Shown here in pieces: positions 2,911 through 20,128 of a stretch of 32,000 nt of DNA. The DNA is from Candidatus Electrothrix sp. GW3-4 (lineage in GTDB: Bacteria; Desulfobacterota; Desulfobulbia; Desulfobulbales; Desulfobulbaceae). The DNA lies in NCBI RefSeq assembly GCF_037902255.1, contig NZ_CP147990.1, positions 3,330,001 to 3,362,000 of the forward strand, read 5' to 3'. The notes under the pieces are model-generated. The model ran no database searches, had not been told where the DNA came from, and saw only the letters and a list, made by a program, of their open reading frames with translations. Both the position numbers and the translations under genes were made by a program. Each line of letters starts with the position of its first letter. Position 1 is the stretch's first letter.

Positions 2911-3036
2911 AAAATACTCCAGGATATAGCCTTGCACGACCAGCACCAGCTCCCGTTTATCGGCCAAGTAGGGCGCATGGTATTCTGAGCAGCTCGTTCA
3001 TACAGGGGGATCAGGATAAACGACTCTTTCTTCTTG

Positions 3037-3924
3037 TTAGTCGTCCGAGCGCTCTTGTCCAATCTCCTTAATCTCTTCTTCTGATAGGCCCGTCAACTGA
3101 GCAATCATTTTGATATCAATTCCTTGCTGAATTCCATTACGGACTATCTCTCTATCTCTTTCATTCTTACCTTCTTCTTTTCCTTCTACTCTCCCCTCAT
3201 CAAAAGCGGTATCAAGGGAGTTTTTCATGTCCCGATAATATTTCAGACTCTTCTCATAAGAACGCACTTGGTCCGGGGTAAAGCGTGCAATCTCCGCAGT
3301 ATCAAAGAGCTGCTCAAACACCTGTTCCCGCAGCATGTCCGGTATTCGTTCCAGCCGATTCAGGTTCCTGATAACGTACAGCCATTTATCAAACCGAGTC
3401 TTCAGCTCATCCAGTTTTTTGCTGAATTTGGGCATCTCAAGGTAGATGAAGGTCAGCTTGTCATAAAATACCCGGTTGGTTTCAATATCAGACAGCTTAA
3501 CATCATAGCGGTACTTTTCCGGTTGGTTCTTATCCTCGTCAAAGACAAAGTCCAGGATAGCCACCGTATAGACAGCCTTGAGTTTGAAATTCCAGTCGCC
3601 TCGTTCCGCCTGTTCACGGATGGGAAAGGTGGAGTAGTAGAGTGCTCGGTCCTTGAAAAAATTCTGTTTGCTCTTCTGGAGTTCGACAATGAATTTCTCA
3701 CCCCGTTCATTCTCGCAGTAGAGATCGAAGATCGCCTTGCGGTCGATATCGGTGTCACCGAGCTGTTCGGTCTTCAGATAGGTCAAATCCCGGATCTCTC
3801 CCTGTTCCTCTTTCAGCAGCTCGTTGAGAAAATCCAGGAGCAGGTTCTTGTTCGGCTCTTCGCCGAAGATCTTTTTAAACCCGTAATCGGTGAACAGGTT
3901 GATATAGCGTTCTTTGCTGGCCAT
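3037..3924 (-). CDS. Rpn-family recombination-promoting nuclease / PD-(D/E)XK putative transposase (YhgA-like)
   Basis: 295 aa. The N-terminus YINLFTDYGFKKIFGEEPNKNLLLDFLNELL, plus DLYCENERGEKFIVELQ and AVYTVAILDF, are characteristic of the Rpn/TIGR01784 family. Confidence 0.8.
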   Translation of the reverse strand: MASKERYINLFTDYGFKKIFGEEPNKNLLLDFLNELLKEEQGEIRDLTYLKTEQLGDTDIDRKAIFDLYCENERGEKFIVELQKSKQNFFKDRALYYSTFPIREQAERGDWNFKLKAVYTVAILDFVFDEDKNQPEKYRYDVKLSDIETNRVFYDKLTFIYLEMPKFSKKLDELKTRFDKWLYVIRNLNRLERIPDMLREQVFEQLFDTAEIARFTPDQVRSYEKSLKYYRDMKNSLDTAFDEGRVEGKEEGKNERDREIVRNGIQQGIDIKMIAQLTGLSEEEIKEIGQERSDD

Positions 3925-4287: not shown

Positions 4288-4420
4288 GTTCGGATCATAG
4301 CAGCACGGAATACGGGGCTCGTTAATTGGTTTTTCGTGTTCGCGTTTTTTTGACTCTTACGTTGTTGGTGGAAAACATGGTCTGTCCCAATGGCACGACC
4401 TTAAGCGGATGACCACAAAA

Positions 4421-5892
4421 CTACACAGCTTGTTCTCTTGGTACTGTCAAACGAGGATACGCCTTTGGACGACGCTTCACAGCCCGTGGTTCACTGCGCC
4501 CCGGTCGATTTCCTACCCTATGTCCGGCAACTGCCCTTAAAAGAGCACTATACAATTCAGGGAGTTTCTTCTTGGCTGCCAAGCTTATTTTATCTCTGAA
4601 TGCTTCAAGGGTTTGTACGGTTCCTTTAAAGCTTATTTTTCTTGGCAAAATCTCAAACAAAGAAGCTGACTGAGCGATTACTGTACGTATTAGATTGTAA
4701 GCAAGGAGATGAACCCCGATTTCCTTACGAATCATCTCCGGTGTTTTGCACCGCAGAACATCCATTTGGAGAGTCTCCTTGATTGAGCGTAAATCTACTT
4801 CGATAAACCACCGTTTGCCATAAAGACCAGCGAGTTCCTTTTTGCTGACTTCCTTTGGGTCCAGCAAGGTGGATGAAATAACTTTCCCTTTCGCTTTTAT
4901 TTCACGGATGGTCATTGTTTCAGGCATGGCATTATACGTTGCTTCATTCATCCACTCAGGACGTGCAGGTTTGCTCCAGGAAACCAAGTGATCTAGTGCT
5001 AAGTCATGACTAAATTTTAGGGTTAGCATTTCCAGACCAAATCGAGAGATGGAACAATTACGGAAACGATCAACCCTAAATTTTAGCTTTTACAGAGCAC
5101 TAGTGACCCAAGGCGTATTCCTCTACGAAAATCCGACTTTCGCCTGGCGTGAAGCTGAAAAACGACATCCACCCCTTTCTGTTGCAACATGGCAATCAAA
5201 AAATAACTACAGTAATAACGATCGGCCAACAGAATATCACCTGTAACCAAGCTGTCGACAATCTGTCGTAACAATGCGTGTTCCCCTGTTTCCTTGCCTT
5301 GATACGGACCAACCGCATAATCCAATACAGATCCGCAAGAAAGAGAAATTATTGCAACCAGCCTGACAATCGGAAACCCCAACCCCTTTTTTTGACCGGA
5401 AACCTAGGGAAAGGCATCTTGGTTTTCAGGGGTATCAGGCATAGAAATCGTTGTGCCGTCAACCAATTTAACAGAACGGCCTTTCCACTTCCAAGCCTCT
5501 TCCGATTGGTCATGTAAATCTCGACCGATCTTGCTCAGCAATCTCGTGATCAGCTTTTCCGGGAGACGCATTCTGGCTCGACAATATGGACTCGTATCCT
5601 GAGAACAAGGCGTTTCATCCTGCGCTATTCTGTCCGCCAGTACGCGGACTACCGCATCTCGACAAGAGTGATCTTGGCTTAAAACCTGAGAAATAAAGGC
5701 CTGTAAAGTCACAATAGGGGTGAAAACCCTACTGCGAAACTTAGGAGTTTCCTCCTCTACAACCTTGTGTATGTAATCGGCAGAGAGTATATCACTGAAA
5801 GGCAGCTTATATGATTGACAAAAGCGAGCTTTCAGGTTGTTAATTTGGCGAACGATTTTTTTTTGATTGGTTTTAAAAATGTCATATATCAC
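4421..5892 (-). pseudogene. IS4-family transposase, copy A, disrupted by a CAG->TAG nonsense change (near 5405) and a 103-bp insertion
   Basis: Three ORF pieces (5404-5892, 5083-5382, 4421-5029) are colinear with copies B and C. Copy C reads ccccag where copy A reads ccctag. Confidence 0.9.
4997..5099. mobile_element. 103-bp MITE-like insertion inside IS4 copy A, flanked by a CTAG duplication
   Basis: The intact copy reads gtgatCTAGtgaccc. Copy A reads gtgatCTAG[103 bp]CTAGtgaccc. The ~30-bp imperfect TIRs have the core CTAAAWTTTAGGGTT. Confidence 0.75.
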
Positions 5893-6039
5893 ACTTGATT
5901 TTATTGATCTGAAAAGCTTATTCTTACAAAGAATTAGTAACGGTGTCTATACGTTATGTCATCTGACGCTAATTTAATCTGCTAAAGACCATAACTGAAA
6001 GATATTGTTCAGTTAAAAGTCTTAAGGTCGTGCCATTGA

Positions 6040-6931
6040 GGGGTTGGGGTTTCCGATTGTCAGGCTGGTTGCAATAATTTCTCTTTCTTGCGGATCTGTA
6101 TTGGATTATGCGGTTGGTCCGTATCAAGGCAAGGAAACAGGGGAACACGCATTGTTACGACAGATTGTCGACAGCTTGGTTACAGGTGATATTCTGTTGG
6201 CCGATCGTTATTACTGTAGTTATTTTTTGATTGCCATGTTGCAACAGAAAGGGGTGGATGTCGTTTTTCAGCTTCACGCCAGGCGAAAGTCGGATTTTCG
6301 TAGAGGAATACGCCTTGGGTCACTAGATCACTTGGTTTCCTGGAGCAAACCTGCACGTCCTGAGTGGATGAATGAAGCAACGTATAATGCCATGCCTGAA
6401 ACAATGACCATCCGTGAAATAAAAGCGAAAGGGAAAGTTATTTCATCCACCTTGCTGGACCCAAAGGAAGTCAGCAAAAAGGAACTCGCTGGTCTTTATG
6501 GCAAACGGTGGTTTATCGAAGTAGATTTACGCTCAATCAAGGAGACTCTCCAAATGGATGTTCTGCGGTGCAAAACACCGGAGATGATTCGTAAGGAAAT
6601 CGGGGTTCATCTCCTTGCTTACAATCTAATACGTACAGTAATCGCTCAGTCAGCTTCTTTGTTTGAGATTTTGCCAAGAAAAATAAGCTTTAAAGGAACC
6701 GTACAAACCCTTGAAGCATTCAGAGATAAAATAAGCTTGGCAGCCAAGAAGAAACTCCCTGAATTGTATAGTGCTCTTTTAAGGGCAGTTGCCGGACATA
6801 GGGTAGGAAATCGACCGGGGCGCAGTGAACCACGGGCTGTGAAGCGTCGTCCAAAGGCGTATCCTCGTTTGACAGTACCAAGAGAACAAGCTGTGTAGTT
6901 TTGTGGTCATCCGCTTAAGGTCGTGCCATTG
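6040..6931 (+). mobile_element. IS4-family IS, copy B, 5'-truncated (starts mid-transposase directly against the IRL of copy A)
   Basis: ORF 6044-6898 equals the C-terminal 284 aa of the same transposase. The IRR ...CTTAAGGTCGTGCCATTG ends at 6931, inside an R repeat tail. Confidence 0.9.
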
Positions 6932-6949
6932 GGGTATAGAGTTATATGA
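6932..6949 (+). repeat. R0: 3' tail of an MNT-pseudogene repeat, the rest removed by IS4 copy B
   Basis: gggtatagagttatatga is identical to the end of R4 (15020-15037). Confidence 0.7.
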
Positions 6950-6983
6950 GATTATACATCAAGTTATCGACAGCCTCGGCACG

Positions 6984-7436
6984 TCATTCATGCTGCGCCG
7001 CTCCCGGATTTACCGTCAACAGCAGATTCTCAAATGGTTGATGGTTCTTCCAGCGATAGGTATGAAAGTCGCGTTGATCCGTTGATAAAATACGTCCATG
7101 CCCAAGATATTCCGCCAAAACCACCAGCGACGCATCAGCCAGATCCATTGGCAGATCAGCGTATTTTCGCATCAGTTCGGCAACCCGCTCTGAATGTTCC
7201 GTATTCAACTCAAAAACGGAAAACACGCCCTGCCGATATTTTTCAATAAACTTCTGCTGCGCGGAAATCCCGGCTCTTGCCAGCAGTAAATGACAGGTTT
7301 CCGTCATCACCGCACAGGTCGTAATCATCCGCTCATTTTGCTCCGATAATTCGGCAAGACGTTGTTTCGCCAATTGGTGATGCTTGTCTTTTGGATATGC
7401 CAAGGCAACCCATAAACCGGTATCAGCGATAACCAT
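6984..7436 (-). CDS. vapC: PIN-domain toxin VapC (copy 1)
   Basis: 150 aa with PIN acidic residues (MVIADTG..., MTETCHLL, DLADASLVV, STDQRDF). It overlaps the upstream antitoxin by 14 nt. Confidence 0.85.
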   Translation of the reverse strand: MVIADTGLWVALAYPKDKHHQLAKQRLAELSEQNERMITTCAVMTETCHLLLARAGISAQQKFIEKYRQGVFSVFELNTEHSERVAELMRKYADLPMDLADASLVVLAEYLGHGRILSTDQRDFHTYRWKNHQPFENLLLTVNPGAAQHE

Positions 7437-7692
7437 ATTTTTTCTCTAAAATTTCGGTCAGCTCGTTTTTATAGGTTTGTGAAAGGCGGGTTTCATCACT
7501 GTCGGCACAGCCGATAAAATCCGACTCCAGCAACAGTTTCAGGGGATTTTCCAGCCTTCTGGATTTGGATGCACCTTGATACCGTTGAGCAATCAAAACG
7601 CGCAACGCAGCTTCAATGACAGCCTGAGCGGATTGCAGCCCACTGACTTGTTGCGCTCTTTTCAAAAGCATATCATTTATATTCAATTGCAT
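7423..7692 (-). CDS. vapB: VapB-type antitoxin (copy 1)
   Basis: 89 aa. The N-terminus MQLNINDMLLKRAQQVSGLQSAQAVIEAALRVLI is typical of VapB/DUF2191 antitoxins. An AAGGAGG SD lies 5 nt upstream. Confidence 0.75.
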   Translation of the reverse strand: MQLNINDMLLKRAQQVSGLQSAQAVIEAALRVLIAQRYQGASKSRRLENPLKLLLESDFIGCADSDETRLSQTYKNELTEILEKKYGYR

Positions 7693-7796
7693 GACATCCT
7701 CCTTGCAACCTTGAGACGGCTGCTGTCTGCCAGCCCTTGCGGACGGAATCTCTTCAATCCTAGTGTTCTTTTATGCAGGCCTTTTTCCATATCCTT

Positions 7797-7825
7797 ATGG
7801 TAACTTATTTGGTTAATCAGGTCAA
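7797..7825 (-). promoter_or_regulatory. outward (cassette-sense) promoter TTGACC-17-TACCAT embedded antisense in the first codons of R1, facing vapBC copy 1
   Basis: Hexamers at 7825-7820 and 7802-7797 on the minus strand. Conserved at 15885-15913 and 30149-30177. Confidence 0.45.
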
Positions 7826-8175
7826 GATCCTGCATCAGGTGCGGGGGGAGGCGCATCGTCTGCTTCCTGATGCGAAAGTCATTCTGCACGGTTCCCCTGT
7901 CCGCCAATGCAACCCGGCAAGACTCTGACCGGGATTTTCTGATCATCGCTGATCATCCGTTGGACAGGGAGAACATAACAAAGCTGAAGGGTGGGCTGTA
8001 TGATATTGAACTGGAAAATGATGAGGTGGTGAGCAGCATTATACGGAGCAGGCAGGAATGGTCTTCGCCTGAATACGATGCGTTGCCGTTCAAAAAGGCG
8101 GTGGAGAGAGAAGGTGTAGAATTGTGAACTACAAGGAAGAGATAATCCGGTACCGGGTTGAACGTGCTGAAGAAA
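7797..8175 (+). repeat. R1: near full-length MNT (minimal nucleotidyltransferase) pseudogene plus the first ~17 codons of its HEPN partner
   Basis: Translates as MVTYLVNQVKILHQVRGEAHRLLPDAKVILHGS, then a +1 shift, then ..ATRQDSDRDFLIIADHPLDRENITKLKGGLYDIELENDEVVSSIIRSRQEWSSPEYDALPFKKAVEREGVEL*. A GTGA-coupled start follows: NYKEEIIRYRVERAEETFQE. Confidence 0.8.
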
Positions 8176-8179
8176 CCTT

Positions 8180-8488
8180 TCAGGAATCCTGTATCAGGAT
8201 TCCGTTTTTTATTATTTCTTTCAGAAAACCTCCTTGGTCATGTTTTGTTTCGAGAAGAACCGGTTCAATCCTGTCGTCCACTTCTCTCCTGATTCTCCAG
8301 AGCAGCGGTCTTGTGGAAAAATAATCCCCCTCCATTTCATCCACTATTATTGCGACATCCACATCGCTGTCTTCCCGTTGAGTTCCTCGCGCATAAGAAC
8401 CGAACAGCATCATTTTATCAAATGACATATATTGTGACAGGAGACGCTTATATTGTATCAGTTTCCTTATAGCCTCTTTTTTATCCAT
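8180..8488 (-). CDS. nucleotidyltransferase (MNT-type antitoxin) of a HEPN/MNT pair
   Basis: MDKKEAIRKL...MMLFGSYARGTQREDSDVDVAIIVDE contains the canonical GS-x9-DxD motif. The start was chosen at the internal ATG that overlaps the HEPN gene end. Confidence 0.85.
   Translation of the reverse strand: MDKKEAIRKLIQYKRLLSQYMSFDKMMLFGSYARGTQREDSDVDVAIIVDEMEGDYFSTRPLLWRIRREVDDRIEPVLLETKHDQGGFLKEIIKNGILIQDS
8183..8210 (+). terminator. rho-independent terminator-like hairpin GGAATCCTG-tat-CAGGATTCC followed by GTTTTTT, at the R1/cassette junction
   Basis: A perfect 9-bp stem plus a T6 run on the + strand. It overlaps the last codons of the convergent MNT gene. Confidence 0.45.
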
Positions 8489-8874
8489 TGTTGCAGTTCC
8501 TTTGCATTTGTAAGTATCTCTTTGCAGCGTTCTTCCGTTAAACTTTTCATCAGTTGCTCTTTGTGCGTCGGGTATCTGCACTCAATATTCATCGGTTCGA
8601 GCATGTCGATAAAAAGTTTCTGGTTCTCTGAAAAAGCATCATAAATTTCCGCTTTCTTTGCGAGGTAAGACAAACTGTGGGAAAAAGGAGCCGGTTTGCC
8701 GTTGCCTTTCACATAACAGGCTTTAAGTATCTTTTCAACAGACTGGTGAGCCATAAAGCCGACATAAAGATACCGCCCGCTTTTCAGCATAGCTCGGGCT
8801 GTTTCAATATCATATTCTGACAATTCAACCCAATATTGTACTTGATCAGTCATCTCATTATAACATTTCTTCAT
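8467..8874 (-). CDS. HEPN-domain protein (toxin of a HEPN/MNT pair)
   Basis: 135 aa. WVELSEYDIETARAMLKSGRY..AHQSVEKILKA...ECRYPTH matches the HEPN fold signature with an R-x-x-x-H type motif. Confidence 0.8.
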   Translation of the reverse strand: MKKCYNEMTDQVQYWVELSEYDIETARAMLKSGRYLYVGFMAHQSVEKILKACYVKGNGKPAPFSHSLSYLAKKAEIYDAFSENQKLFIDMLEPMNIECRYPTHKEQLMKSLTEERCKEILTNAKELQQWIKKRL

Positions 8875-8925
8875 GAGTAATGGGGGCGACGGACTGAGTT
8901 TCCCCTTCTGCGGAAATTTTTTTTT

Positions 8926-9022
8926 GTTTTATCCCCTTACAATCGCATTATCCTCAGTATATTCAGTTTTCCACGAAATTTCAACGGTTACAGTTTAGCG
9001 GATTGAGCATTTGCCTGATGAA
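8926..9022 (-). promoter_or_regulatory. U1: conserved promoter/5'-leader module (TTGAAA-17-TATACT) upstream of the HEPN/MNT cassette
   Basis: -35 at 8984-8979 and -10 at 8961-8956 (minus strand). About 75-80% identical by eye over ~100 bp to U2 at 14580-14680. Confidence 0.5.
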
Positions 9023-9155
9023 GTGCTTTTGTTCCGCTGGCGCAACCGAAGAAAAGACGGCTCGAAGTGTTCCTAAATAAATTAGTGGGGCCGGGTTCAA
9101 CGCCCTTCCTGTCGGCCCTGCTGATCATGCCCGGCCTGCCGGAAAATGGGAGACG

Positions 9156-9272
9156 GAGCACCGCGATCCTTTTGATCGGATGCCTGCGGCGCAGGCGAAA
9201 CTGGAAAATGTTGTTCCGGCAGGCGTTGACAAAGAATTGAGGCGATTTCCTGTTCAGATCATGAGGAAATAA
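9156..9272 (+). pseudogene. C-terminal relic of a PIN/VapC gene
   Basis: EHRDPFDRMPAAQAKLENVVPAGVDKELRRFPVQIMRK* carries the HRDPFDR..AQA motif of VapC C-termini. The upstream part is frameshifted and absent. Confidence 0.6.
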
Positions 9273-9302
9273 AGAAGGGCCGATATAATGCGTACGGGCT
9301 GC

Positions 9303-9592
9303 AAAAGGTTCCCGTGTCGCCAATGCAACCCAGCAGGACTCTGACTGGGATTTTCTGATCATCTTTGATCATCCGCCGGACAGAGAGATCATAACAGAGC
9401 TGAAGGATGGGCTGTATGATATTGAATTGGAGAATGATGAGGTGGTGAGCAGTATTATACGGAGCAGGCAGGAGTGGTCTTCGCCTGAATACGATGCCTT
9501 GCCGTTCAAAAAGGCGGTGGAGAGAGAGGGGGGAGAGCTGTGAATACAGGAAGGGCATAACCCGCTACCGGCTTGAACGCGCTGAAGAAACC
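9303..9592 (+). repeat. R2: 5'-truncated MNT pseudogene repeat plus a degenerate HEPN start; the only copy with G-S and DxD in the same frame
   Basis: GSRVANATQQDSDWDFLIIFDHPPDREIITELKDGLYDIELENDEVVSSIIRSRQEWSSPEYDALPFKKAVEREGGEL*. There is an in-frame TAA immediately upstream and no start codon. Confidence 0.8.
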
Positions 9593-9652
9593 AATTATTT
9601 GCGACAGTATAGCCCACATTCCGCACGTTGACACATAAAAAAATATTTTATA

Positions 9653-9699
9653 ACCTGCTGCCTCAAAAAGACATTTAATAAATCAACCAGGCAGCAGGT
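9653..9699. other. perfect 11-bp inverted repeat ACCTGCTGCCT-(25 nt)-AGGCAGCAGGT
   Basis: Read directly. It lies between the R2 end and the IS1634 terminus, preceded by TTGACA at 9628. Confidence 0.4.
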
Positions 9700-9765
9700 A
9701 TGGAAAACAACACAACGATTTTACCACAGGAATGCTCAAGTAAACTCCTCAATCACTTGGGCCTA

Positions 9766-11151
9766 GTACAGCTCAGCGTAAATTAAACACTGCTTTTTTG
9801 CACAATAATATTGTATCATGAATCCTTTTTGATTGCGTATATTGACAACAATCTTGCAACACATGGATTCGAAAATGCCTACACCCAAATCGCCATCAAT
9901 TGCTGTTTCCGAACAACAGAAAGAAATTTTGTCAAAAATAGCTCGACAATCAACAGCTGATTTTCGTGAGGTAAGTCGGGCTTCTTTAATATTGGAGATT
10001 GAGAAAGGAAAACCGAACTCAAAGATTGCAAAAGTCATGAGTTGCAGTATCGACAAGGTTAAACATTGGAGATACAAGTGGCTGGCCAACCAAGATACTT
10101 TAATGCAAATAGAGACTGATCCCCAAAATGCCAATCAGTTGGAAAAAAGTATTCGAGAAGTTTTAAAAGATAATCCGCGTCCGGGAGCACCAGTAACTTA
10201 TTCTTCAGAACAATATTGTCAGATTTTAGCAGTTGCACTGGAGCATCCCGAAGAAAGCGGTCGTCCAATTTCTCAATGGAGCAGTAGGGAATTGGCGGAT
10301 GAATGCAATAAGCGTGGGATAACCTCTGGAATTTCGGACCGTCAAGTGGGCCGATTTTTAAAAAGAAACCGATGTGAAACCTCATCATAGTCGGTATTGG
10401 CTCAATCCCAATCATGACAATGAAGAACTGTTTGTTTTAGAAGTGAAAGATGTCTGTGAAACATACCACGAAGCTCCCCGAAAGGCGGTAATAAACGGCA
10501 GGCGAACCATCAGTATTGATGAAAATACCGGAATACAGGCTCTTGAGAGGAAAAATCCGACAAAAAAGATAGAGCCGGGAAAGCCGGAGCGGATTGAGTT
10601 TGAGTACATCAGGCACGGAACACTCTCGCTCATTGCAAACTTTGACGTAGTGACCGGTGAAGTCGTCTCTCCCAGCATAGGAGACACTCGGGACGAACAT
10701 GATTTTTGCGAACATATTCGAAGCCTTATATTAAGCGATCCGGAAACTCGGGAGTGGGTCTTTGTGGCTGATCAGCTCAATACTCATAAGTCGGAATCAC
10801 TTGTCAAGTTGGTCAGTGAATTATGCGAAATAAAAGATAATTTAGGCGTCAAAGGGAAACAAGGCATTTTGAAATCAATGAAAAGCAGAGCCGAATTTCT
10901 CAGGAAGAAAGACCATGCAATTCGCTTTGTTTATACCCCAAAACACTGTTCATGGCTCAATCAAGTAGAAATTTGGTTTGGTATTCTTACTAAGAAAATC
11001 ATTAAAAGAGGTAATTTTACATCAAAAAAAGATCTCAGGAGCAAATTGCTCGACTTTATTGATTACTTTAATGCGACAATGGCAAAACCATACAAATGGA
11101 CATTTAATGGGTTGCCGTTAAAAGCATAGGGTTATTTGCGCCGCGCTGTAC
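9766..11151 (+). mobile_element. IS630/Tc1-mariner-family IS with a TA target duplication
   Basis: The empty site gggccTAgtcgcgg is visible in copy 2. Here it reads gggccTA[GTACAGCTCAGCG...CGCGCTGTAC]TAgtcgcgg, with imperfect IRs GTACAGC. Confidence 0.9.
9863..11129 (+). CDS. IS630-family transposase, split into two ORFs by a +1 shift in the run TTAAAAAG (~10358-10365)
   Basis: The N-terminal HTH part is ORF 9833-10390. The DDE part (ORF 10374-11129) has KPHHSRYWLNP, HGT.SL, QLNTH and SWLNQVEIWF. The shift could be a programmed frameshift, a mutation or a homopolymer error. Confidence 0.8.
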
Positions 11152-11162
11152 TAGTCGCGGGT

Positions 11163-12743
11163 ATGTATGACGAACTCGGACTTGGGGAGCTGATTGACAG
11201 TCTGATTCATCAGGATAAAGAAAAGCGAGTTGTCTCAGTTGGTCAGGCAGTTAAGGCAATGGTTCTTAACGGGTTGGGCTTTGCGAATCGGGCATTGTAT
11301 CTGACCCCGCATTTTTTCCAGGATAAACCGGTAGATCGACTCATCGGAGAAGGCATTGAGGCCCAGCACCTGAACGATACTGTTTTGGGCCGGGCCTTAG
11401 AAGTGATTTACGAGCATAATCCCGAAGAGTTATATTCGCAGCTTGCAGCTAGGGCAATTGGTCGTCTAGGGCTGCTGGCACGTTTTGGTCACTTGGATTC
11501 AACGAGTTTTCATACCGACGGTCGCTATCCAGCCAACGGATCAGAAGAGGAAGAAGGTGTTATTCGGATCACAAAAGGCTACAGCCGTGATCATCGTCCG
11601 GATCTGAACCAGATCGTGTTGCAGCTCATTTGCGAACGACAGGCTGGCATCCCGCTTCTGATGAAGCCGTTAAGTGGTAACAGTAGCGATAAAACAGATT
11701 TTCGGGAAACAGTGCAAGCGCATATTGATCAGATGAAAAACGATTTCAGCCTGGAATATCTGGTTGCGGATAGTGCGCTCTATACAGCGCAAACATTAAA
11801 AGAACTGAGCATGATATTGTGGATTTCCCGTGTACCGGAGACATTGAATCTGTCCCAGGAGATCATCCATGAAGTAGCTTCAAATCTGATGCAGGATCCT
11901 GAAAAAGCAGCATCTCGCAGTCTCGGGGTAGTTTATGGCGATGTCAGGCAGCGCTGGTTGGTTGTCTATTCGCCTGAAGCATATCAACGGGGACGCAAGA
12001 CCGTAAACAAAAAATGCCTCAAGCTGAGCACAAATGAATCCAAGCAATTCGATAAATTGTGCAAACAGGATTTTGCCTGCGAGGCCGATGCATTGAAAGC
12101 ACTGTCCCGTTTTGAAAAAAAGCTGAAAATACTCTCAATTCATGACGCTCGTGTTGTTGCTTTACCTCGCCATAAGGGCAAAGGACGGCCAGCCAAGGGC
12201 AAGAAACCGGACTTTTATGTTTACCGCATTGAAGGCAACCCAGCCTCCCTGCTTCAGGAGAGAACCCGATTGTTGGAACGAAAAAGCTGTTTTATTCTTG
12301 CAACGAATCAGTTGGACTGCGAAGAATTGTCCGACGAGGAACTCTTGAAAGTGTACAAAGATCAGCAAAAGGTTGAACGGGGTTTTCGTTTCCTCAAAGA
12401 TCCTATGTTTATGGCTTCAACGCTTTTTTTAAAATCCCGAAAACGTATCATGGCCCTGATGATGGTTATGACGCTTTGCCTCCTGGTGTACGCCGCGTTG
12501 GAATATCGCATCAGACAAGCGCTCGAAATAAATAATGAAACATTTCCCAACCAGAAAGGAAAACCTGCCCCTAACCCTACTGCTCGTTGGGTATTTCAGT
12601 TTTTTTCAGGAATTCACCTGCTGCTTGTCGGCGGAATGCAACAGCTGGTCCTGAATTTAAATGAACATCATTTGCGTCTGCTGAAGCTGTTGGGTGGGAG
12701 ATATGAAAAATTATATTCTGGAAATGGACAGAGGGTATGCTGA
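11163..12743 (+). CDS. IS1634-family transposase (intact copy)
   Basis: MYDELGLGELIDS..., HLDSTSFHTDGRY, ITKGYSRDHRPDLNQ, YLVADSALYT and KVERGFRFLKD. The start was chosen at the first ATG downstream of the IS630 junction. Confidence 0.85.
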   Translation: MYDELGLGELIDSLIHQDKEKRVVSVGQAVKAMVLNGLGFANRALYLTPHFFQDKPVDRLIGEGIEAQHLNDTVLGRALEVIYEHNPEELYSQLAARAIGRLGLLARFGHLDSTSFHTDGRYPANGSEEEEGVIRITKGYSRDHRPDLNQIVLQLICERQAGIPLLMKPLSGNSSDKTDFRETVQAHIDQMKNDFSLEYLVADSALYTAQTLKELSMILWISRVPETLNLSQEIIHEVASNLMQDPEKAASRSLGVVYGDVRQRWLVVYSPEAYQRGRKTVNKKCLKLSTNESKQFDKLCKQDFACEADALKALSRFEKKLKILSIHDARVVALPRHKGKGRPAKGKKPDFYVYRIEGNPASLLQERTRLLERKSCFILATNQLDCEELSDEELLKVYKDQQKVERGFRFLKDPMFMASTLFLKSRKRIMALMMVMTLCLLVYAALEYRIRQALEINNETFPNQKGKPAPNPTARWVFQFFSGIHLLLVGGMQQLVLNLNEHHLRLLKLLGGRYEKLYSGNGQRVC

Positions 12744-12779
12744 ATGTGGGGTGTGGCAAGAATCTCTTGATATACTTTT

Positions 12780-13076
12780 TTAGTTTCTGTGACCTGACAA
12801 CGCCCGCAACACAGCTTTCGGTTCCTTTGCCACAACATTCAGCAGTACACGCGCCGGACCTCGCGGAGTGCGGTCACCCCGTTCCCAGTGGCGAAGTGTC
12901 CCCAAGCTGATACCGAATGCGGAAGCGAATTCCGCCTGGGTCATTCCTATATGCTGACGAACCGCCTTCACATCCGGCTGTGTAACCTCATGCACAACAG
13001 CCTTTATCGGTTTTCCTTTCGCAAAATCAATAGATTCACGTAGTCCTTGCTGAATACTCTCAAATGCGCTGCTCAT
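12780..13076 (-). CDS. XRE-family HTH antitoxin (HigA/NadS-like)
   Basis: MSSAFESIQQGL...GMTQAEFASAFGISLGTLRHWERGDRTPRGPARVLL. Its ATG lies 1 nt after the toxin stop. Confidence 0.8.
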   Translation of the reverse strand: MSSAFESIQQGLRESIDFAKGKPIKAVVHEVTQPDVKAVRQHIGMTQAEFASAFGISLGTLRHWERGDRTPRGPARVLLNVVAKEPKAVLRALSGHRN

Positions 13077-13077
13077 C

Positions 13078-13443
13078 TCACGCCCCTCTTTGTTTACTTC
13101 CATATGTCGCCAGCAGTTCTTCGGTTAATTTGGCCAGCATGTTCCGCTCCGCTTTGCTGATGTTCGCCTTTTCGGATTTTCCGAACAAAGTCAGCAAAAA
13201 CAACGGGTATTGCTCACTGTGAAAATAGTAGATGACCCGGACACCGCTGCTTTTTCCCGTGCCTTCGCGTTTCCAGCGCAGTTTCCGAATACCGCCTGTA
13301 CCCTGAAGGAGTACACCTGCCTCTGGATTGGCTGCAAGATATCGGATCAGATTTTCCCGCTCCGGGGTACGCAGCAATTTTTCCGCACGTCGGATAAATC
13401 CCGGGAGTTCGACTACTGTGTTCATAGGGATATTGTAATCCAT
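13078..13443 (-). CDS. RelE/HigB-like toxin (toxin-first operon with the XRE antitoxin)
   Basis: MDYNIPMNTVVELPGFIRRAEKLL..GGIRKLRW..GKSSGVRVIYYFH..LFLLTLFGKSEKANIS. The upstream part of the 175-aa ORF is read-through from antisense R3. Confidence 0.75.
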   Translation of the reverse strand: MDYNIPMNTVVELPGFIRRAEKLLRTPERENLIRYLAANPEAGVLLQGTGGIRKLRWKREGTGKSSGVRVIYYFHSEQYPLFLLTLFGKSEKANISKAERNMLAKLTEELLATYGSKQRGA

Positions 13444-13540
13444 TGGATTACTCTTGACAAGAAGGGAGGTATGCCTTGGCGTAAAAAAGGTCAGTGAGAG
13501 GAACGCGGTGTTATGTCGATTTTCCCGTCGTGACCTCTCT

Positions 13541-13786
13541 TTCTGCACGGTTTCCGTGTCCGTCAATGCAGCCCGGCAGGACTCTGACCGGGATTTTCTG
13601 ATCATCTCCGATTATCCGATGGACAGGTAGGTCATAACAAAGCTGAAGGATGGTCTGTATGATACAGAACTGGATAATGATGAGGTAGCGAGGAGTATTA
13701 TACGGAGCAGGCAGGAATGGTCTTCGCCTGCATACGATGCGTTGCCGTTCAAGAAGGCGGTGGGGGGAGAGGGGGTAGAATTGTGA
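13541..13786 (+). repeat. R3: 5'-truncated MNT pseudogene repeat, with an internal TAG and the shared +1 frameshift
   Basis: ttctgcacggtttccgtgtccgtcaatgcagcccggcaggactctgaccggg...gtagaattgtga. Homology stops exactly at the MNT stop codon. Confidence 0.8.
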
Positions 13787-13805
13787 CAGTCTCTTATGCA
13801 GGCTC

Positions 13806-14318
13806 TCACGTAATCATGTCTTCATTGTGTTGTGCTAAAAGCGAATTAAGCAACCTGATGGAATAAAACCGTTTGTTTGTCAACAGCATGTCAAAAAGCG
13901 GCTTGAGGGCAGGGATAAGGTTTTTATCTCGGGCAACGGATAATATTCCCAGCGTACCGATGCAGTTTATGCCGAAGTTTTCGGCAATTGCACGGGCCTT
14001 TCTGTCATCAATCAACAGAAAATCGGCTTCTGATTCTTTGTAGAGGAGCACACATTCCGATTCTCCGTAATCCATCAGAGGCGTCAGGGTGTTCAGTCCT
14101 TTGATCGGTTTGATTTTATCGCGGAAGAAGCGGTAGATTTGCGCATAGTAATCGGTTTTTTCGTCAAGAGTGATCTCCTGCCAGACGGCATTCGGAATAG
14201 AGATGTTATCAAACAACGCATTGAGCATCTCCAGCTGATCAATAACGGCCAGTGAAAATATTGCGCCGGAATCCGCAATAACAAGTCCGTTTTTCTCACT
14301 TGAGCTTCGCGATGTCAT
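13806..14318 (-). CDS. DUF3368-family PIN-like protein (putative toxin)
   Basis: 170 aa. LVIADSGAIFSLAVIDQLEML..., LLIDDRKARAIAENFGINCIGTLGIL. It overlaps the UPF0175 gene. Confidence 0.7.
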   Translation of the reverse strand: MTSRSSSEKNGLVIADSGAIFSLAVIDQLEMLNALFDNISIPNAVWQEITLDEKTDYYAQIYRFFRDKIKPIKGLNTLTPLMDYGESECVLLYKESEADFLLIDDRKARAIAENFGINCIGTLGILSVARDKNLIPALKPLFDMLLTNKRFYSIRLLNSLLAQHNEDMIT

Positions 14319-14556
14319 CCATAACCTCGGCGGCTGTCAGATTGGATATTGGGATCTCGTTTTCCGACAGGACAGTCTCAAACTGCAACCGGGAAAGACC
14401 GGCGATCTGCGCGGCTTTTCCGACAGTCAGTTTCTGTGCTTTATAGAGCTGAACTGCCAGAGCAAGGCGAATGCGCTGCCGCAGTTCGTTTTCCGTCTCA
14501 TTTAAGGCAAGGAGGATGTCGGCGGGGAAATCTACAGATATTGATTGCGTATTCAT
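14296..14556 (-). CDS. UPF0175-family protein (putative antitoxin of DUF3368)
   Basis: MNTQSISVDFPADILLALNETENELRQRIRLALAVQLYKAQKLTVGKAAQIAGLSRLQFETVLSENEIPI. A GGAGG lies upstream of this ATG; the track start is a TTG 18 nt further up. Confidence 0.7.
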   Translation of the reverse strand: MNTQSISVDFPADILLALNETENELRQRIRLALAVQLYKAQKLTVGKAAQIAGLSRLQFETVLSENEIPISNLTAAEVMDDIAKLK

Positions 14557-14579
14557 TATGTTATTAACCTCCAAAGCTC

Positions 14580-14680
14580 CTTTTGTTTTATTCCCTTACA
14601 ATTACATCATTCTCAGTATATTCAATTCTTCCCGGAATCTCAACGGCTCCGATTCAGCGAATTGAAAATTCACCTGATGA
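14580..14680 (-). promoter_or_regulatory. U2: conserved promoter/5'-leader module (TTGAGA-17-TATACT) upstream of the UPF0175/DUF3368 cassette
   Basis: -35 at 14643-14638 and -10 at 14620-14615 (minus strand). Homologous to U1. Confidence 0.5.
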
Positions 14681-14766
14681 AAAATAACCCTGTTTCCAGA
14701 TACGCATATTTTTCTGTGGCGGCTCTTTGATGATCCGCATCTGCCTGCGGAAAGAGCGTATCGACT

Positions 14767-15037
14767 GATTCCTGGTGCGAAGGTGATTCTGCACGGTTCC
14801 CGTGTCCGCCAATGCAGCACGGCAGGATTCTGACTGGGATTTTCTGATCATCGCTGATCATCCGTTGGACAGGGAGAACATAACAAAGCTGAAGGATGGG
14901 CTGTATGATATTGAATTGGAAAATAATGAGTTGGTGAGCAGTATTATACGGAGCTGGCAGGAATGGTCTTCGCCTGATGAATACAATGCCTTGCTGTTTA
15001 AAAAGGCGGTGGAGAGAGAGGGTATAGAGTTATATGA
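14767..15037 (+). repeat. R4: MNT pseudogene repeat with a divergent 5' region
   Basis: ..LIPGAKVILHGSRV, then the +1 shift, then ANAARQDSDWDFLIIADHPLDRENITKLKDGLYDIELENNELVSSIIRSWQEWSSPDEYNALLFKKAVEREGIEL. The stop is lost through a 2-nt insertion. Confidence 0.8.
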
Positions 15038-15071
15038 GATTATACATCAAGTTATCGACAGCCTCGGCACG

Positions 15072-15524
15072 TCATTCATGCTGCGCCGCTCCCGGATTTA
15101 CCGTCAACAGCAGATTCTCAAATGGTTGATGGTTCTTCCAGCGATAGGTATGAAAGTCGCGTTGATCCGTTGATAAAATACGTCCATGCCCAAGATATTC
15201 CGCCAAAACCACCAGCGACGCATCAGCCAGATCCATTGGCAGATCAGCGTATTTTCGCATCAGTTCGGCAACCCGCTCTGAATGTTCCGTATTCAACTCA
15301 AAAACGGAAAACACGCCCTGCCGATATTTTTCAATAAACTTCTGCTGCGCGGAAATCCCGGCTCTTGCCAGCAGTAAATGACAGGTTTCCGTCATCACCG
15401 CACAGGTCGTAATCATCCGCTCATTTTGCTCCGATAATTCGGCAAGACGTTGTTTCGCCAATTGGTGATGCTTGTCTTTTGGATATGCCAAGGCAACCCA
15501 TAAACCGGTATCAGCGATAACCAT
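15072..15524 (-). CDS. vapC: PIN-domain toxin VapC (copy 2, identical to 6984-7436)
   Basis: The protein is identical to copy 1. Confidence 0.85.
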   Translation of the reverse strand: MVIADTGLWVALAYPKDKHHQLAKQRLAELSEQNERMITTCAVMTETCHLLLARAGISAQQKFIEKYRQGVFSVFELNTEHSERVAELMRKYADLPMDLADASLVVLAEYLGHGRILSTDQRDFHTYRWKNHQPFENLLLTVNPGAAQHE

Positions 15525-15780
15525 ATTTTTTCTCTAAAATTTCGGTCAGCTCGTTTTTATAGGTTTGTGAAAGGCGGGTTTCATCACTGTCGGCACAGCC
15601 GATAAAATCCGACTCCAGCAACAGTTTCAGGGGATTTTCCAGCCTTCTGGATTTGGATGCACCTTGATACCGTTGAGCAATCAAAACGCGCAACGCAGCT
15701 TCAATGACAGCCTGAGCGGATTGCAGCCCACTGACTTGTTGCGCTCTTTTCAAAAGCATATCATTTATATTCAATTGCAT
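15511..15780 (-). CDS. vapB: VapB-type antitoxin (copy 2, identical to 7423-7692)
   Basis: The protein is identical to copy 1. Confidence 0.75.
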   Translation of the reverse strand: MQLNINDMLLKRAQQVSGLQSAQAVIEAALRVLIAQRYQGASKSRRLENPLKLLLESDFIGCADSDETRLSQTYKNELTEILEKKYGYR

Positions 15781-15884
15781 GACATCCTCCTTGCAACCTT
15801 GAGACGGCTGCTGTCTGCCAGCCCTTGCGGACGGAATCTCTTCAATCCTAGTGTTCTTTTATGCAGGCCTTTTTCCATATCCTT

Positions 15885-15913
15885 ATGGTAACTTATTTGG
15901 TTAATCAGGTCAA
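15885..15913 (-). promoter_or_regulatory. outward promoter TTGACC-17-TACCAT antisense within R5, facing vapBC copy 2
   Basis: Same sequence as 7797-7825. Confidence 0.45.
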
Positions 15914-16220
15914 GATCCTGCATCAGGTGCGGGGGAGGCGCATCGTTTGCTTCCTGATGCGCAAGTCATTCTGCACGGTTCCCGTGCCCGCCAATGCAAC
16001 CCGGCAGGATTCTGATTGGGATTTTCTGATCATCGCTGATCATCCGTTGGACAGAGAGATCATAACAAAGCTGAAGGATGGTCTGTATGATATTGAACTG
16101 GAAAATGATGAGGTGGTGAGCAGTATTATACGGAGCAGGTAGGAGTGGTTTTCTTCTGAATACGATGCGTTGCTGTTTAAAAAGGCAGTGGAGAGAGAGG
16201 GGGTAGAATTGTGAACTACA
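15885..16220 (+). repeat. R5: near full-length MNT pseudogene repeat (internal TAG) plus ~3 codons of the HEPN start
   Basis: MVTYLVNQVKILHQVRG...DSDWDFLIIADHPLDREIITKLKDGLYDIELENDEVVSSIIRSR*. Homology ends at gaattgtgaactaca. Confidence 0.8.
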
Positions 16221-17912: not shown

Positions 17913-18022
17913 AGAGATACACTTCAGTCAAATAGAGGAGAAAATCATCAGATAAGCGAGTTTGTTGTTAGCCCAAAATCTATCTTAAATTATGCCAAAT
18001 TTTGTGTTGACGATGGGGTCCA

Positions 18023-18594
18023 CTTTAGATGAACCAAATAATTTTGGTGGGCTAATAACATTCGAAACTACTGCGCCAGCAATAAAAAGTTTCCCGAAAT
18101 CACTAACTTGTTCTAAGACATCAGGAGGTCTTTCCTTTTTTCTTTTGATTTTTTCTTCATACTGTCTTCTCCTTTCGTTTTCTTTCTTCTTTTGTGCATC
18201 TGCTAATCGCTGAAGCCTTTCCGCCTTTTCTTTTCGCTTAATCTCTTCATTCTTCCGTATGTTATTATTAATTACTAAAAGCGATTTGGAGGCACGATTT
18301 TTCAACCTTGGGTTCAAATCAATTGCTTTTTCAAAAAAAAAATTTGGCTTCGCTATAATCACCGAGTTCCCAAGAGGCAAAACCTGCCTGTAAATTTAAA
18401 TGCGCTTCATTTGGATATAGTTGAATCCCTTTTTCGTAGATTCTTAATGCCTCAGCATAATGTTCATTCGACATATATCTGCTTCCCCTCCTAAGAAAAT
18501 CTTGTACAGTTGCGGCATAAGATGTGTTCAAAAAGGTAAATATCAAAAAAAAAGCATTTATTGCTATGAATTTAATACTGTATATCAATTTCAT
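18023..18594 (-). pseudogene. secreted TPR-repeat / charged coiled-coil protein, frameshifted in an A10 run and 3'-truncated by IS3
   Basis: Signal peptide MKLIYSIKFIAINAFFLIFTFLNTSYA. The TPR sequence YAEALRIYEKGIQLYPNEAHLNLQAGFASWELGDYSEAKFFFEKAIDLNP spans the two ORFs 18331-18594 and 17985-18380. Confidence 0.6.
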
Positions 18595-19865
18595 TATTTA
18601 TACAGCCCAGAATAAGGTTCATATATTTTTTTATATCGTATGCCTGTTTTGTAAAAAGCAAACGATATCTTTTTATTGGGTAAGTAATACATTCTTACTA
18701 GCTCGAACTCTCCATTCTTATCTATATCACAAAATATATTTTGATCTGCACGATATTTTTTAGTGCGATATTCAACTTTAGGTATAGGGATATTTAATAC
18801 ATTTTTCCCTTTTACTTCTTTCAATATCATTTCTTGGCTATTTTTTCTATTAATACGCAAATTTTTTTTCTTTCCATCAAGTTCGTCAATAAAAAAAACA
18901 CCTCTTTTAAAGAGTTTGCTGTGTTTTTGCATGATGGTATTTGATCTATCCATATTATTATAAACTATTTGGCCTTCCTCATTGAAAAGTCCTGAACTGT
19001 TGTTTTTATCAAATAAAGGATATTCTCCTGTACTATCCCCTTTTTCTAAATAAGCAATTCGATATGATGTCTGTTTGGATAAACAATCATTATTTGTAAA
19101 CTTAATAAGTGATTTCATGAAAAGAAGTTTATGTTTTCCTGCATAATAAACGCGATCTGGATGTATTTCCCATAATGAGTTACCACTGTTTGTTTTTCTT
19201 TTAGGAAAAATAATTTTACATCTTTCTCTAATTTCAAAACTTCTATTCATGGGCAATAGGTCGTAAAATGAAATACTAGAAACATAATGAGAATGTTTAG
19301 TTTCAGTATAATTTGATTTAGCGAAAATAGGATTCATCCCTTGAGGTTGTAACATTGCCATTACTGGACCCCATTTTGACTTGCTATGTAGAAATTTAGA
19401 ACCAAGATATTCTGCTTCCGTTCCACCAATTGTCAATTTTTTTTCAAAATCAATTCTTTTAGCCCTGCCTTTTGTACTAATTTTAGCAATTTTTGCTATT
19501 ACTGTCGAAAAGGTTGGGATATCAATGAGTACATTATTTAGTTCGGGAATACTGTGGATGTCACGACCATCCAAGTTGAAAAGTGTATCTCCTTCGTTGA
19601 TTCCCTTTGTTTTTGAAGCAATTACACGAACACCATATGGGATTAAGTGACCAATCATTTTTTTTTCGTCAGGTTTCATATCCCTTACGGTAATCGTTCC
19701 AATTGATACAGTGCCAGTAGTTGACCTCTGAATATCCTCCTGCCCTTTGGCGTTTACTGGTAAGCAATTATAACCAAACAAGAAATATATAATAAAGAGG
19801 AAAGATATAAGGAAGAAATGAACAGATATCGGTCGTCTTGATGGAGTAAATTGAACCTCAGTCAT
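18594..19865 (-). CDS. membrane-anchored/secreted PDZ-domain protein with an uncharacterised C-terminal domain
   Basis: 423 aa with an N-terminal TM/signal (VHFFLISFLFIIYFLFGY). The PDZ-like segment is YGVRVIASKTKGINEGDTLFNLDGRDIHSIPEL. A TAATG overlap joins it to the next gene. GC is low. Confidence 0.6.
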   Translation of the reverse strand: MTEVQFTPSRRPISVHFFLISFLFIIYFLFGYNCLPVNAKGQEDIQRSTTGTVSIGTITVRDMKPDEKKMIGHLIPYGVRVIASKTKGINEGDTLFNLDGRDIHSIPELNNVLIDIPTFSTVIAKIAKISTKGRAKRIDFEKKLTIGGTEAEYLGSKFLHSKSKWGPVMAMLQPQGMNPIFAKSNYTETKHSHYVSSISFYDLLPMNRSFEIRERCKIIFPKRKTNSGNSLWEIHPDRVYYAGKHKLLFMKSLIKFTNNDCLSKQTSYRIAYLEKGDSTGEYPLFDKNNSSGLFNEEGQIVYNNMDRSNTIMQKHSKLFKRGVFFIDELDGKKKNLRINRKNSQEMILKEVKGKNVLNIPIPKVEYRTKKYRADQNIFCDIDKNGEFELVRMYYLPNKKISFAFYKTGIRYKKIYEPYSGLYK

Positions 19866-19992
19866 AATAGATTTACCTTTTCTGAGTAAAATAACAAGGG
19901 TCGGCTCTTTATTGGGCGGTCAAGAATGTATTCCCAATGTATCATAACTGATGAGCAGTGTGCAACCAGCAATAACCAACAAGTTGATTATG

Positions 19993-20105: not shown

Positions 20106-20128
20106 TGGGTGAATTAGGGACAGACCAT

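Follow-up and report, generated by a model that had tools for sequence, protein, structure and literature searches.

Direct repeats of a dead nucleotidyltransferase antitoxin gene as probable sites of cassette turnover in a toxin–antitoxin island of cable bacteria

Why should unrelated toxin–antitoxin (TA) gene pairs be separated, one after another, by copies of the same dead gene? The question is raised by a stretch of 32,000 nucleotides from the cable bacterium Candidatus (Ca.) Electrothrix sp. GW3-4 (contig NZ_CP147990.1, positions 3,330,001 to 3,362,000; hereafter the window, numbered from its first letter), where a relic of a minimal nucleotidyltransferase (MNT) antitoxin gene and of the start of its HEPN toxin partner alternates with two-gene cassettes. 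A first-pass annotation had described a repeat-cassette-repeat layout with uniform polarity, ragged repeat edges, a repeat consisting of a gene relic, and no integrase in the window, and this description holds. The array belongs to the broad class of TA/defence islands. Our reading, to which we attach a probability of roughly 55% and which the anatomy of the arrays supports well, is that the region forms part of a cable-bacterium TA island built on direct repeats of the dead MNT(-HEPN') gene, and that recombination at these repeats is the main engine of cassette turnover. That homologous recombination within the repeat occurs, and has occurred recently, can be demonstrated from the mismatch patterns between copies.

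Self-BLAST and a repeat search located a single repeat family with seven members in the window, five on the + strand and two on the - strand. The + strand copies, which make up cluster 1, were recovered where the first-pass annotation had placed them. R1 (7767–8186) is a near full-length MNT relic with a +1 frameshift, followed by the first 63 nt of HEPN, and is a recombinant copy; R2 (9307–9595) is truncated at its 5' side, keeps 57 nt of HEPN and is the sole window copy without the additional C that causes the frameshift; R3 (13538–13786) is the most decayed relic, with an in-frame stop and a left junction that is the same in three species; R4 (14749–15037) is a further relic; and R5 (15828–16220) is again near full-length, with both a frameshift and an in-frame stop, its open reading frame (ORF) at 15885–16139 being annotated as WGN25_14930 (100% identical in a protein search). 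Additional to the earlier list are two - strand relics in cluster 2, namely R6m (28716–28966), whose 3' edge and the end of a type IV pilin gene are 37 bp apart, and R7m (29861–30208), the sequence donor or partner of the right half of R1. The short R0 tail reported at 6932–6949 (+) is real as well: it represents the final 18 bp of a repeat copy, identical to the R4 tail at 15020–15037, and marks the start of a 1202-bp duplication (6932–8133 = 15020–16220), the remainder of R0 having been removed by the end of an insertion sequence (IS) at 6933. Over the core of ~245 bp, the window copies share 84.9–95.4% pairwise identity, while alignment showed both repeat edges to be ragged and to vary between copies. 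No terminal inverted repeats or defined ends were found for the repeat, both ends being copy-specific, and a miniature inverted-repeat transposable element or an IS was thus ruled out; a plasmid origin was likewise ruled out by the lack of any match to R1 in a distant BLASTN search of 72,556 plasmids.

The repeat aligns to an MNT gene along its entire length. An intact homologous pair is present in Ca. Electronema sp. PJ (locus L002), where a gene for a 115-aa MNT (644–991; NTP_transf_2) overlaps by 4 nt a gene for a 135-aa HEPN protein (988–1395; Pfam PF05168), and intact pairs also occur in metagenome contigs, so that the parental pair which the first-pass annotation had proposed to look for has been found. 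Its reading of the core as the C-terminal two thirds of an MNT followed by a GTGA-coupled HEPN start agrees with the PJ pair, but falls short for R1, R5 and R7m, which contain nearly the whole MNT gene with the +1 frameshift. MNT-HEPN modules of the MntA/HepT type, in which the NTP_transf_2 antitoxin gene overlaps the HEPN toxin gene by 4 nt, are thus the source of the repeat; unlike these, the array copies have the toxin deleted after ~60 nt and the antitoxin frameshifted or truncated, and are not working TA modules. An intact MNT with the G-S ... D-x-D motif was confined to L002 644–991, the protein-search entries P0001–P0022 and contig L045, and none of the window copies retains it: they carry one extra C between the G-S (GSRV) and D-S-D (DSD) motifs or a 5' truncation, the left edge of R2 lying at that very point. 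The extra C is found in ~20 of 24 copies from six species. Three copies in other species that lack the frameshift still match NTP_transf_2; Pfam gave no significant match for the relic ORFs in the window. When the full PJ HEPN gene was used as BLAST query against all loci, the HEPN remnant after any relic comprised at most nt 1–64, and full-length HEPN was confined to L002, L016 (partial), L017, L021, L022, L028 and L045. In a neighbour-joining tree all relics formed one clade, apart from the intact MNT genes. These alignments show a genuine MNT-HEPN pair to be the ancestor of the repeat, with loss of the HEPN toxin after about nt 52–64.

The core was confined to cable bacteria in a pattern scan of one genome per species, for which a strict 24-mer was used and three species were returned. 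A protein search yielded ~20 intact 115-aa MNTs and ~50 shorter ORFs, every source-named match belonging to a Ca. Electrothrix, Ca. Electronema or 'Desulfobulbus' cable-bacterium assembly, and a metagenome scan, used for the types of neighbouring genes, gave 28 loci, ~18 of them close relatives and mostly short contigs. Two of the loci suggest an order of decay. On contig L045 an intact pair adjoins BrnTA and an Rnf operon; at the orthologous site in Ca. Electrothrix aarhusensis (L011) the MNT is intact, HEPN nt 54–354 are deleted and an Rpn nuclease gene lies beside the remnant. As L011 keeps the MNT but has the HEPN deletion, toxin loss will have come first and antitoxin decay after. In PJ the intact pair is directly followed by a second, older relic, from which it follows that tandem units existed.

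R1 attests directly to recombination inside the repeat. The sequence at 6932–7842 equals 15020–15929 with 0 mismatches in 911 bp, whereas the next 291 bp, inside the repeat, hold 24 mismatches; if mismatches were uniformly distributed, the chance of this pattern would be ~(291/1202)^24, or roughly 1e-15 by our own calculation. To the right, R1 is identical over ~7880–8090 to R7m, a copy on the opposite strand at a distance of 22 kb, and R1 and R7m differ to the left of that tract. Mismatch positions and profiles in 20-bp bins place the crossover zone at 7843–7879, with the R5 unit on its left side and R7m on its right. Since its left part is the R5 unit and its right part is R7m, R1 is, judged by these mismatch patterns, demonstrably a recent recombinant with its crossover at ~7843–7879.

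Comparable arrays were found in six other genomes, namely those of Ca. Electrothrix scaldis (L005), E. aestuarii (L007), E. aarhusensis (L009), 'Desulfobulbus sp. N3' (L042), YB6 (L006) and E. laxa (L008). The array has a PIN pair and an AcrB-type gene (window 153–3000) next to it in GW3-4, E. scaldis, E. aestuarii, E. aarhusensis and N3, five genomes in all, and E. scaldis and E. aestuarii have a common glycosyltransferase gene on the far side. No AcrB gene was found near the YB6 and E. laxa arrays, whose flanks could not be tied to the AcrB site. Cassette order and content, whose comparison the first-pass annotation had suggested, differ among the seven genomes, with no fixed order. The order is HepT/MNT, DUF3368, vapBC137, vapBC150, Fic, vapBC in E. 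aestuarii; XRE/RelE, DUF3368, vapBC137, vapBC150, Fic in E. scaldis; a DUF3368 relic, TumE, XRE/RelE, HEPN/MNT in YB6; TumE, Fic, PIN in N3; and vapBC150, HEPN/MNT, an IS interruption, XRE/RelE, DUF3368, vapBC150 in GW3-4, followed by the inverted cluster 2 with HigBA and MNT/HepT. As the YB6 and GW3-4 orders are permuted, deletion alone is insufficient to explain both. The cassettes in both clusters of the window are antiparallel to the repeat, and in six of the genomes the same is true of 25 of the 27 genes that come next downstream of a repeat; among a dozen or so cassette types only one TA cassette, x82-PIN139 (L011, L019), is clearly parallel. The copies do not flank TA cassettes exclusively: Fic, Rpn/PDDEXK_2 nuclease, type IV pilin, subtilase and IS630 genes adjoin repeats as well. 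Across cable bacteria the array is conserved and old, and yet fluid.

Traces of exchange are also seen in pairwise comparisons. The arrays of E. aestuarii and E. scaldis are collinear and 96–97% identical, their left flanks are 91% identical, and the AcrB gene of each is 87–90% identical to that of the window; yet the first cassette is swapped between the two, with homology resuming in or beside the flanking repeats, and E. aestuarii carries an additional vapBC unit with repeats at its bounds. Between GW3-4 and YB6, the XRE/RelE stretch (window 12791–13461, L006 10330–11000) has 3 mismatches over ~670 bp (99.5% identity), whereas the adjoining repeat and flank are ~13% diverged and the other region in common (2229–3000) is only 85–87% identical. 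This near-identity points to a recent cassette exchange between lineages.

The edges of the repeats proved to be specific to the cassettes. Every copy was mapped to R1 coordinates (1 = window 7740), and where a given cassette lies downstream of a repeat, the latter ends at 356 for Fic (5/5 sequences), 388 for DUF3368 (3/3), 381–388 for vapBC150 (6/6) and 380 for TumE (2/2). Where the cassette lies upstream, the repeat starts at 140–143 for RelE (3/3, with identical junction sequence), 142 for vapBC137 (2/2), 151 for Fic (2/2) and 39 for TumE (2/2; YB6 and N3, whose outer neighbours differ). Most cassette edges are conserved in 2–5 genomes. As the edges travel with the cassette across species and neighbourhoods, each repeat is therefore a chimera, taking its left edge from the cassette on its left and its right edge from that on its right. 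In the cassettes for which both edges are available (upstream end/downstream start: Fic 356/151, DUF3368 388/112, RelE 438/140, TumE 380/39, vapBC150 381–388/1, HigBA 375/120), the downstream repeat starts before the upstream repeat ends, giving an overlap of 205–380 bp. Such an overlap fits the single-crossover integration of a circle consisting of the cassette and an internal repeat fragment, and the same layout is a substrate from which the circle could be regenerated.

Among the relics, the pooled pairwise ratio of nonsynonymous to synonymous variation (pN/pS) in the MNT frame was 0.36, compared to 0.70–0.96 in the other five frames and 0.06–0.18 in functional cassette genes. Private mutations of single copies were distributed 30:22:23 over the codon positions and 20% of them were synonymous, against 28% expected under neutrality (p=0.16), whereas 53% of the variants common to several copies were synonymous (p=3e-4). 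From this split between private and shared variants, the relics appear to evolve neutrally now, the older variation stemming either from functional ancestors or from conversion from functional alleles. In-frame stops are present in 2/7 window copies (R3, R5), and the ATG is lost in two more. Folding of the repeat core on either strand was no better than that of shuffled sequences (z-scores -0.30 and -1.15), and a scan of the whole window against Rfam at gathering thresholds gave no match, by which a known RNA family was ruled out for the repeat. We infer that the repeats are selected neither as gene nor as RNA and provide portable homology only.

A mechanism that would accommodate these observations starts from general homologous recombination of the RecA type between two flanking repeats, by which a cassette would either be deleted or looped out as a circle comprising the cassette and the overlapping repeat fragment. 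A single Campbell-type crossover could then re-insert the circle at any repeat copy, in the same array, elsewhere in the genome or in the DNA of another cable bacterium, and would restore a truncated repeat on each side while keeping the polarity of the cassette. Unequal crossing-over and gene conversion among repeats would duplicate cassettes and hold the repeats similar. As to origin, tandem MNT-HEPN units would have come first, and other TA modules would then, in illegitimate events, have taken the place of everything between the HEPN of one unit and the start of the next MNT, this HEPN and the 5' part of that MNT included, giving the overlapping edges. As a recombination platform, the repeat may be an adaptation or a by-product. 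The homologous-recombination scaffold, one of three candidate explanations put forward in the first-pass annotation, is favoured here on account of the R1 recombinant, the conserved cassette edges and the varying order and content in seven genomes.

Several points weigh against recombination at the repeats as the main engine of turnover. The mobility of the cassettes is deduced from comparative anatomy rather than directly observed, and some patterns could come from differential loss of a long ancestral array combined with IS-mediated rearrangement, GW3-4 being IS-rich and having its cluster 1 inverted relative to other species. The identical tracts of 911 bp and ~210 bp could in principle be artefacts of long-read polishing, and the tract of high identity between GW3-4 and YB6 stops at the cassette borders, outside the repeat core. 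In three genomes, the end of the repeat upstream of the HEPN/MNT cassette falls at a different point each time, and on one side the vapBC137 cassette lacks a repeat of its own. Finally, the model leaves the near-universal antiparallel polarity and the first capture of cassettes unexplained.

A bolder version of the same reading would make the array an integrase-free analogue of an integron, in which the dead antitoxin gene offers homology to all comers, TA and defence cassettes leave as loops that include a piece of it, re-insert at any copy and circulate within the genome and between Electrothrix species, and Rpn-type nucleases may supply the initiating breaks. We put this forward tentatively, with the odds leaning against it.

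The chief rival, somewhat less probable still, holds that the locus is a passive graveyard of decayed tandem MNT-HEPN paralogs into which TA genes were inserted by chance, shaped by vertical inheritance, ordinary deletion and IS rearrangement, the repeats having no special part. Decayed tandem paralogs, also among the earlier candidates, probably do describe the origin of the array, given the PJ pair with its adjoining relic and the purifying-selection signature of the old shared variants, but they are not our favoured overall reading. In line with this rival are, besides the retained coding signature, the many junctions that are orthologous across species and the many IS copies in GW3-4, including inverted IS1634 elements. 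So is the finding that the repeat is more diverged than the adjacent cassettes where both were compared across species: R3 is ~13% diverged from its YB6 counterpart at a synonymous divergence of 0.09–0.23 in the neighbouring cassettes, and relative to E. scaldis the repeat stretch has more mismatches than the surrounding cassettes. Vertical decay does not, however, account for a recombinant with its crossover inside the repeat, for the same cassette with the same edges having different neighbours in different genomes, for the permuted cassette order, or for the swap and the extra vapBC unit of E. aestuarii being bounded by repeats. Moreover, the frameshift common to most copies and the single clade require either amplification of the unit after pseudogenisation or gene conversion.

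Less probable again is that a dedicated enzyme inserted the cassettes serially into an MNT-HEPN target and left a partial target copy at every event; the enzyme would be an unrecognised recombinase or the linked Rpn/PDDEXK_2 nuclease. The HEPN gene is always destroyed near nt 52–64, and the deletion of nt 54–354 in E. aarhusensis, with Rpn adjoining the remnant while the orthologous L045 pair is intact, would suit such an enzyme. An Rpn-family (PDDEXK_2) recombination-promoting nuclease or putative transposase is encoded in the window itself (3037–3924, - strand; PF12784, 5e-77; NCBIfam TIGR01784), with the AcrB/PIN flank on one side and the array on the other, and homologues lie directly beside a repeat or an intact MNT-HEPN pair in L011 (10774–11697), L017 (1035–1598), L024, L026 (2308–3225) and L045 (1454–2389). 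Rpn proteins are reported to promote RecA-independent recombination in Escherichia coli (PMC5350276), which we count in favour of this rival; a role of the Rpn gene in the array is a conjecture. Against an enzyme of this kind speak the ragged and cassette-dependent edges on both sides of the repeat, the absence of conserved short motifs or inverted repeats at the junctions, and the duplication of 205–380 bp overlapping on both sides of the cassettes, which is unlike the outcome of cut-and-paste or site-specific events. The large ORFs of the window encode transposases, Rpn, AcrB, pilin or proteins without a family match, with no integrase or recombinase among them, and a span of +/-10 kb in the loci from six other genomes (E. 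scaldis, E. aestuarii, YB6, E. laxa, E. aarhusensis and N3) revealed no recombinase either, the arrays of E. scaldis, E. aestuarii, YB6 and N3 being likewise devoid of one. The search for a linked recombinase that had been proposed thus came back empty, and serial site-specific integration into an MNT-HEPN target, the remaining earlier candidate, is not supported, since neither a recombinase nor a defined crossover site nor any structure resembling att or attC came to light.

It is very unlikely that the repeat is itself functional, be it as a truncated MNT (an 85-aa ORF, MRKSFCTVP...) acting as orphan antitoxin or decoy, or as DNA or RNA by which the adjacent cassette is regulated. The MNT-frame pN/pS, the NTP_transf_2 matches of the frameshift-free copies in other species, the ORFs of 76–100 aa annotated on relics in several genomes, and a promoter-like hexamer pair for vapB within the left end of R1 and R5 could be taken as signs of function. 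A functional truncated protein was nevertheless rejected, since the constraint hinted at by the pooled value is carried only by the old shared variants, the private ones being neutral. The stops and lost start codons in the window copies tell the same way, and the frameshift parts the G-S motif from the downstream ORF, whose start lies after it. For a regulatory element, neither a structure signal nor an Rfam match was found, and the left edges vary, so that the cassettes have no common upstream element.

An array of CALIN type (a cluster of attC sites lacking an integrase) with attC-type sites hidden in the repeat, or an assembly artefact, is scarcely credible: the repeat-cassette-repeat layout with uniform polarity and the sole supporting short-read contig breaking inside repeats would allow for it, but there are no imperfect palindromes at the cassette boundaries, the folding z-scores are unremarkable, homology to a protein gene extends over the entire repeat, intI is missing, the copies differ by 5–15% with unique junctions, and comparable arrays recur in metagenome contigs and in six further genomes that were assembled independently, which contradicts the collapsed or expanded repeats considered in the first-pass annotation.

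The integron analogy drawn at the outset stands for the layout and the co-orientation of the cassettes, but not for attC and IntI. A search for inverted repeats, and folding compared with shuffles, detected no inverted repeats or hairpins at the cassette boundaries, and integron attC sites were ruled out by these absent hairpins together with the absent folding signal. Of the two, only an integron must have an intI gene with attI; a CALIN does without. Sedentary chromosomal integrons and CALIN, such as the Vibrio cholerae superintegron with its attC sites (V. cholerae repeats, VCR) and TA cassettes, likewise consist of small cassettes, many of them TA, separated by one recurring repeat; they share the uniform polarity and the variation in content between relatives at a fixed chromosomal site, and the excision of circles and their re-insertion proposed here have their counterpart there. 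However, attC is a folded element of 55–140 bp, whereas the repeat is a 250–480-bp relic of a protein gene with ragged edges; integrons have IntI and attI, whereas neither is present here and recombination appears to be general homologous recombination within the repeat; and unlike integron cassettes, those of the array probably carry their own promoters.

TA/defence islands resemble the array in bringing together unrelated type II TA pairs with Fic- and Rpn-type genes at a variable, IS-enriched hotspot with conserved flanks, but we know of no described island that is punctuated by a single recurring pseudogene repeat with cassette-specific edges. In Campbell-type insertion-duplication, a single crossover of a circle carrying a gene fragment yields two truncated, overlapping copies around the insert, which is the arrangement found around each cassette. 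What distinguishes the array from such constructs and from silent-cassette or shufflon-like loci is that the process would be natural and repeated, that a pseudogene would provide the homology and that whole TA operons would be moved instead of variant segments of a single gene. No description of TA arrays in cable bacteria, or of TA arrays punctuated by a pseudogene, turned up in the literature that was searched; the genome paper on E. scaldis, whose repeat catalogue is limited to >99% identity, makes no mention of toxins.

If the repeats do mediate cassette traffic, the locus would represent a second, enzyme-free route to an integron-like organisation of accessory genes, it would indicate that a pseudogene can be kept and amplified as a recombination substrate, and it would offer a testable handle on the growth and turnover of TA islands. 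If they are only scars, it would be a well-documented but ordinary example of TA-island decay. For cable bacteria, which are uncultured multicellular filaments with IS-rich genomes, the hypervariable locus may be usable as a strain marker, and the array documents recent gene exchange between species.

The Pfam domains of the cassettes (PIN/VapB, HEPN/NTP_transf_2, RelE/HTH_3, DUF3368/UPF0175, HigB/HTH and NTP_transf_2/HepT) confirm them as predicted type II TA pairs, and every pair of cluster 1, for which the first-pass annotation had placed all TA cassettes on the - strand, was corroborated in this way. On that strand, vapBC copy 1 (6984–7692; VapC 6984–7436, VapB 7423–7692; PIN, VapB_antitoxin) is identical to copy 2 (15072–15780). 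The HEPN + MNT cassette (8180–8874; HEPN, 7e-24; Polbeta/NTP_transf_2) is unrelated in sequence to the repeat and has orthologues in E. laxa and YB6 (94–95%); the spacer upstream of it (8875–9302) holds a promoter-like element and a fragment of a PIN gene. The XRE + RelE/HigB-like cassette (HTH_3, RelE) spans 12780–13446, and the DUF3368 (PIN-like) + UPF0175 cassette, assigned by Pfam, spans 13806–14574, with orthologues of 92% identity in E. scaldis and E. aestuarii. Cluster 2 comprises, on the + strand, a HigB + HigA-like cassette (29088–29824; HigB_toxin, 1e-23; weak HTH_3), antiparallel to R6m and R7m, and a MNT + HepT cassette (30240–30958; Pfam), the 3' part of which is replaced by an IS66 copy from ~30782. 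The latter has its orthologue in the E. aestuarii array, as the first cassette there, and is 96.7% identical to L007 3343–3888. The cassette position by R6m is occupied by a type IV pilin gene (28161–28679, +; Pilin and N_methyl domains).

A 100-bp element at 8922–9022 is 79% identical to 14581–14681, the two copies lying upstream of the HEPN/MNT and UPF0175/DUF3368 cassettes, respectively. Both contain a promoter-like - strand sequence (TTGAAA/TTGAGA-17-TATACT), and further copies occur in YB6 and E. laxa; the element may be what remained of a common promoter region after the replacement of one cassette by another. At 8183–8212 (+), exactly where the HEPN' stub of R1 meets the convergent MNT gene at its 3' end, there is a strong terminator-like hairpin, GGAATCCTGTATCAGGATTCC, with a T run behind it. 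The glycosyltransferase gene of E. aestuarii and E. scaldis, at the end of the array, lies between non-overlapping fragments of one repeat copy (R1 coordinates 129–178 and 199–424; L007 1768–1816 and 2922–3144; L005 4607–4655, 5761–5824 and 6040–6219) and appears to have been inserted into a repeat. Another repeat copy in E. aestuarii is split by a 225-bp insertion (7003–7226).

The interruption of cluster 1 had been annotated as IS1634::IS630, and Pfam confirmed both transposase types: an IS630-family element (9833–11129; DDE_3) adjoins an IS1634-family element (11136–12753; DUF4277 and DDE_Tnp_1), the whole spanning 9833–12753 on the + strand. The IS1634 copies at 11151–12753 and 22707–24311 are inverted with 99.8% identity, and IS66 copies at 24324–25541 and 30782–32000 are in direct orientation (96%). 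With E. scaldis and E. aestuarii as reference, the orientation of cluster 1 to the AcrB flank is reversed, while that of cluster 2 is ancestral; together with the inverted IS1634 copies, this makes it probable that one array was split into two clusters by an IS-mediated inversion.

Left of the array, an IS4-family element forms a partial palindrome (4386–6933), in which 4386–4998 is the reverse complement of 6321–6933 (100%) and 5100–5387 that of 6039–6326 (100%), while 5356–6042 has a reverse match of 99.7% at 20125–20811; the IS may thus be nested or rearranged, or the assembly may be faulty at this spot. For a 423-aa ORF (18594–19865, -) and a lysine-rich 131-aa ORF (17985–18380, -), both in a stretch of 32–34% G+C (18000–20000), no significant Pfam or NCBIfam match was obtained, with one sub-threshold NCBIfam match. 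A fragment of a T2SS-F/PilC-type gene (26016–26471, +) lies among transposase genes. Base composition changes sharply along the window, from 62% G+C in the AcrB region (1–2000) to 42–49% in the array.

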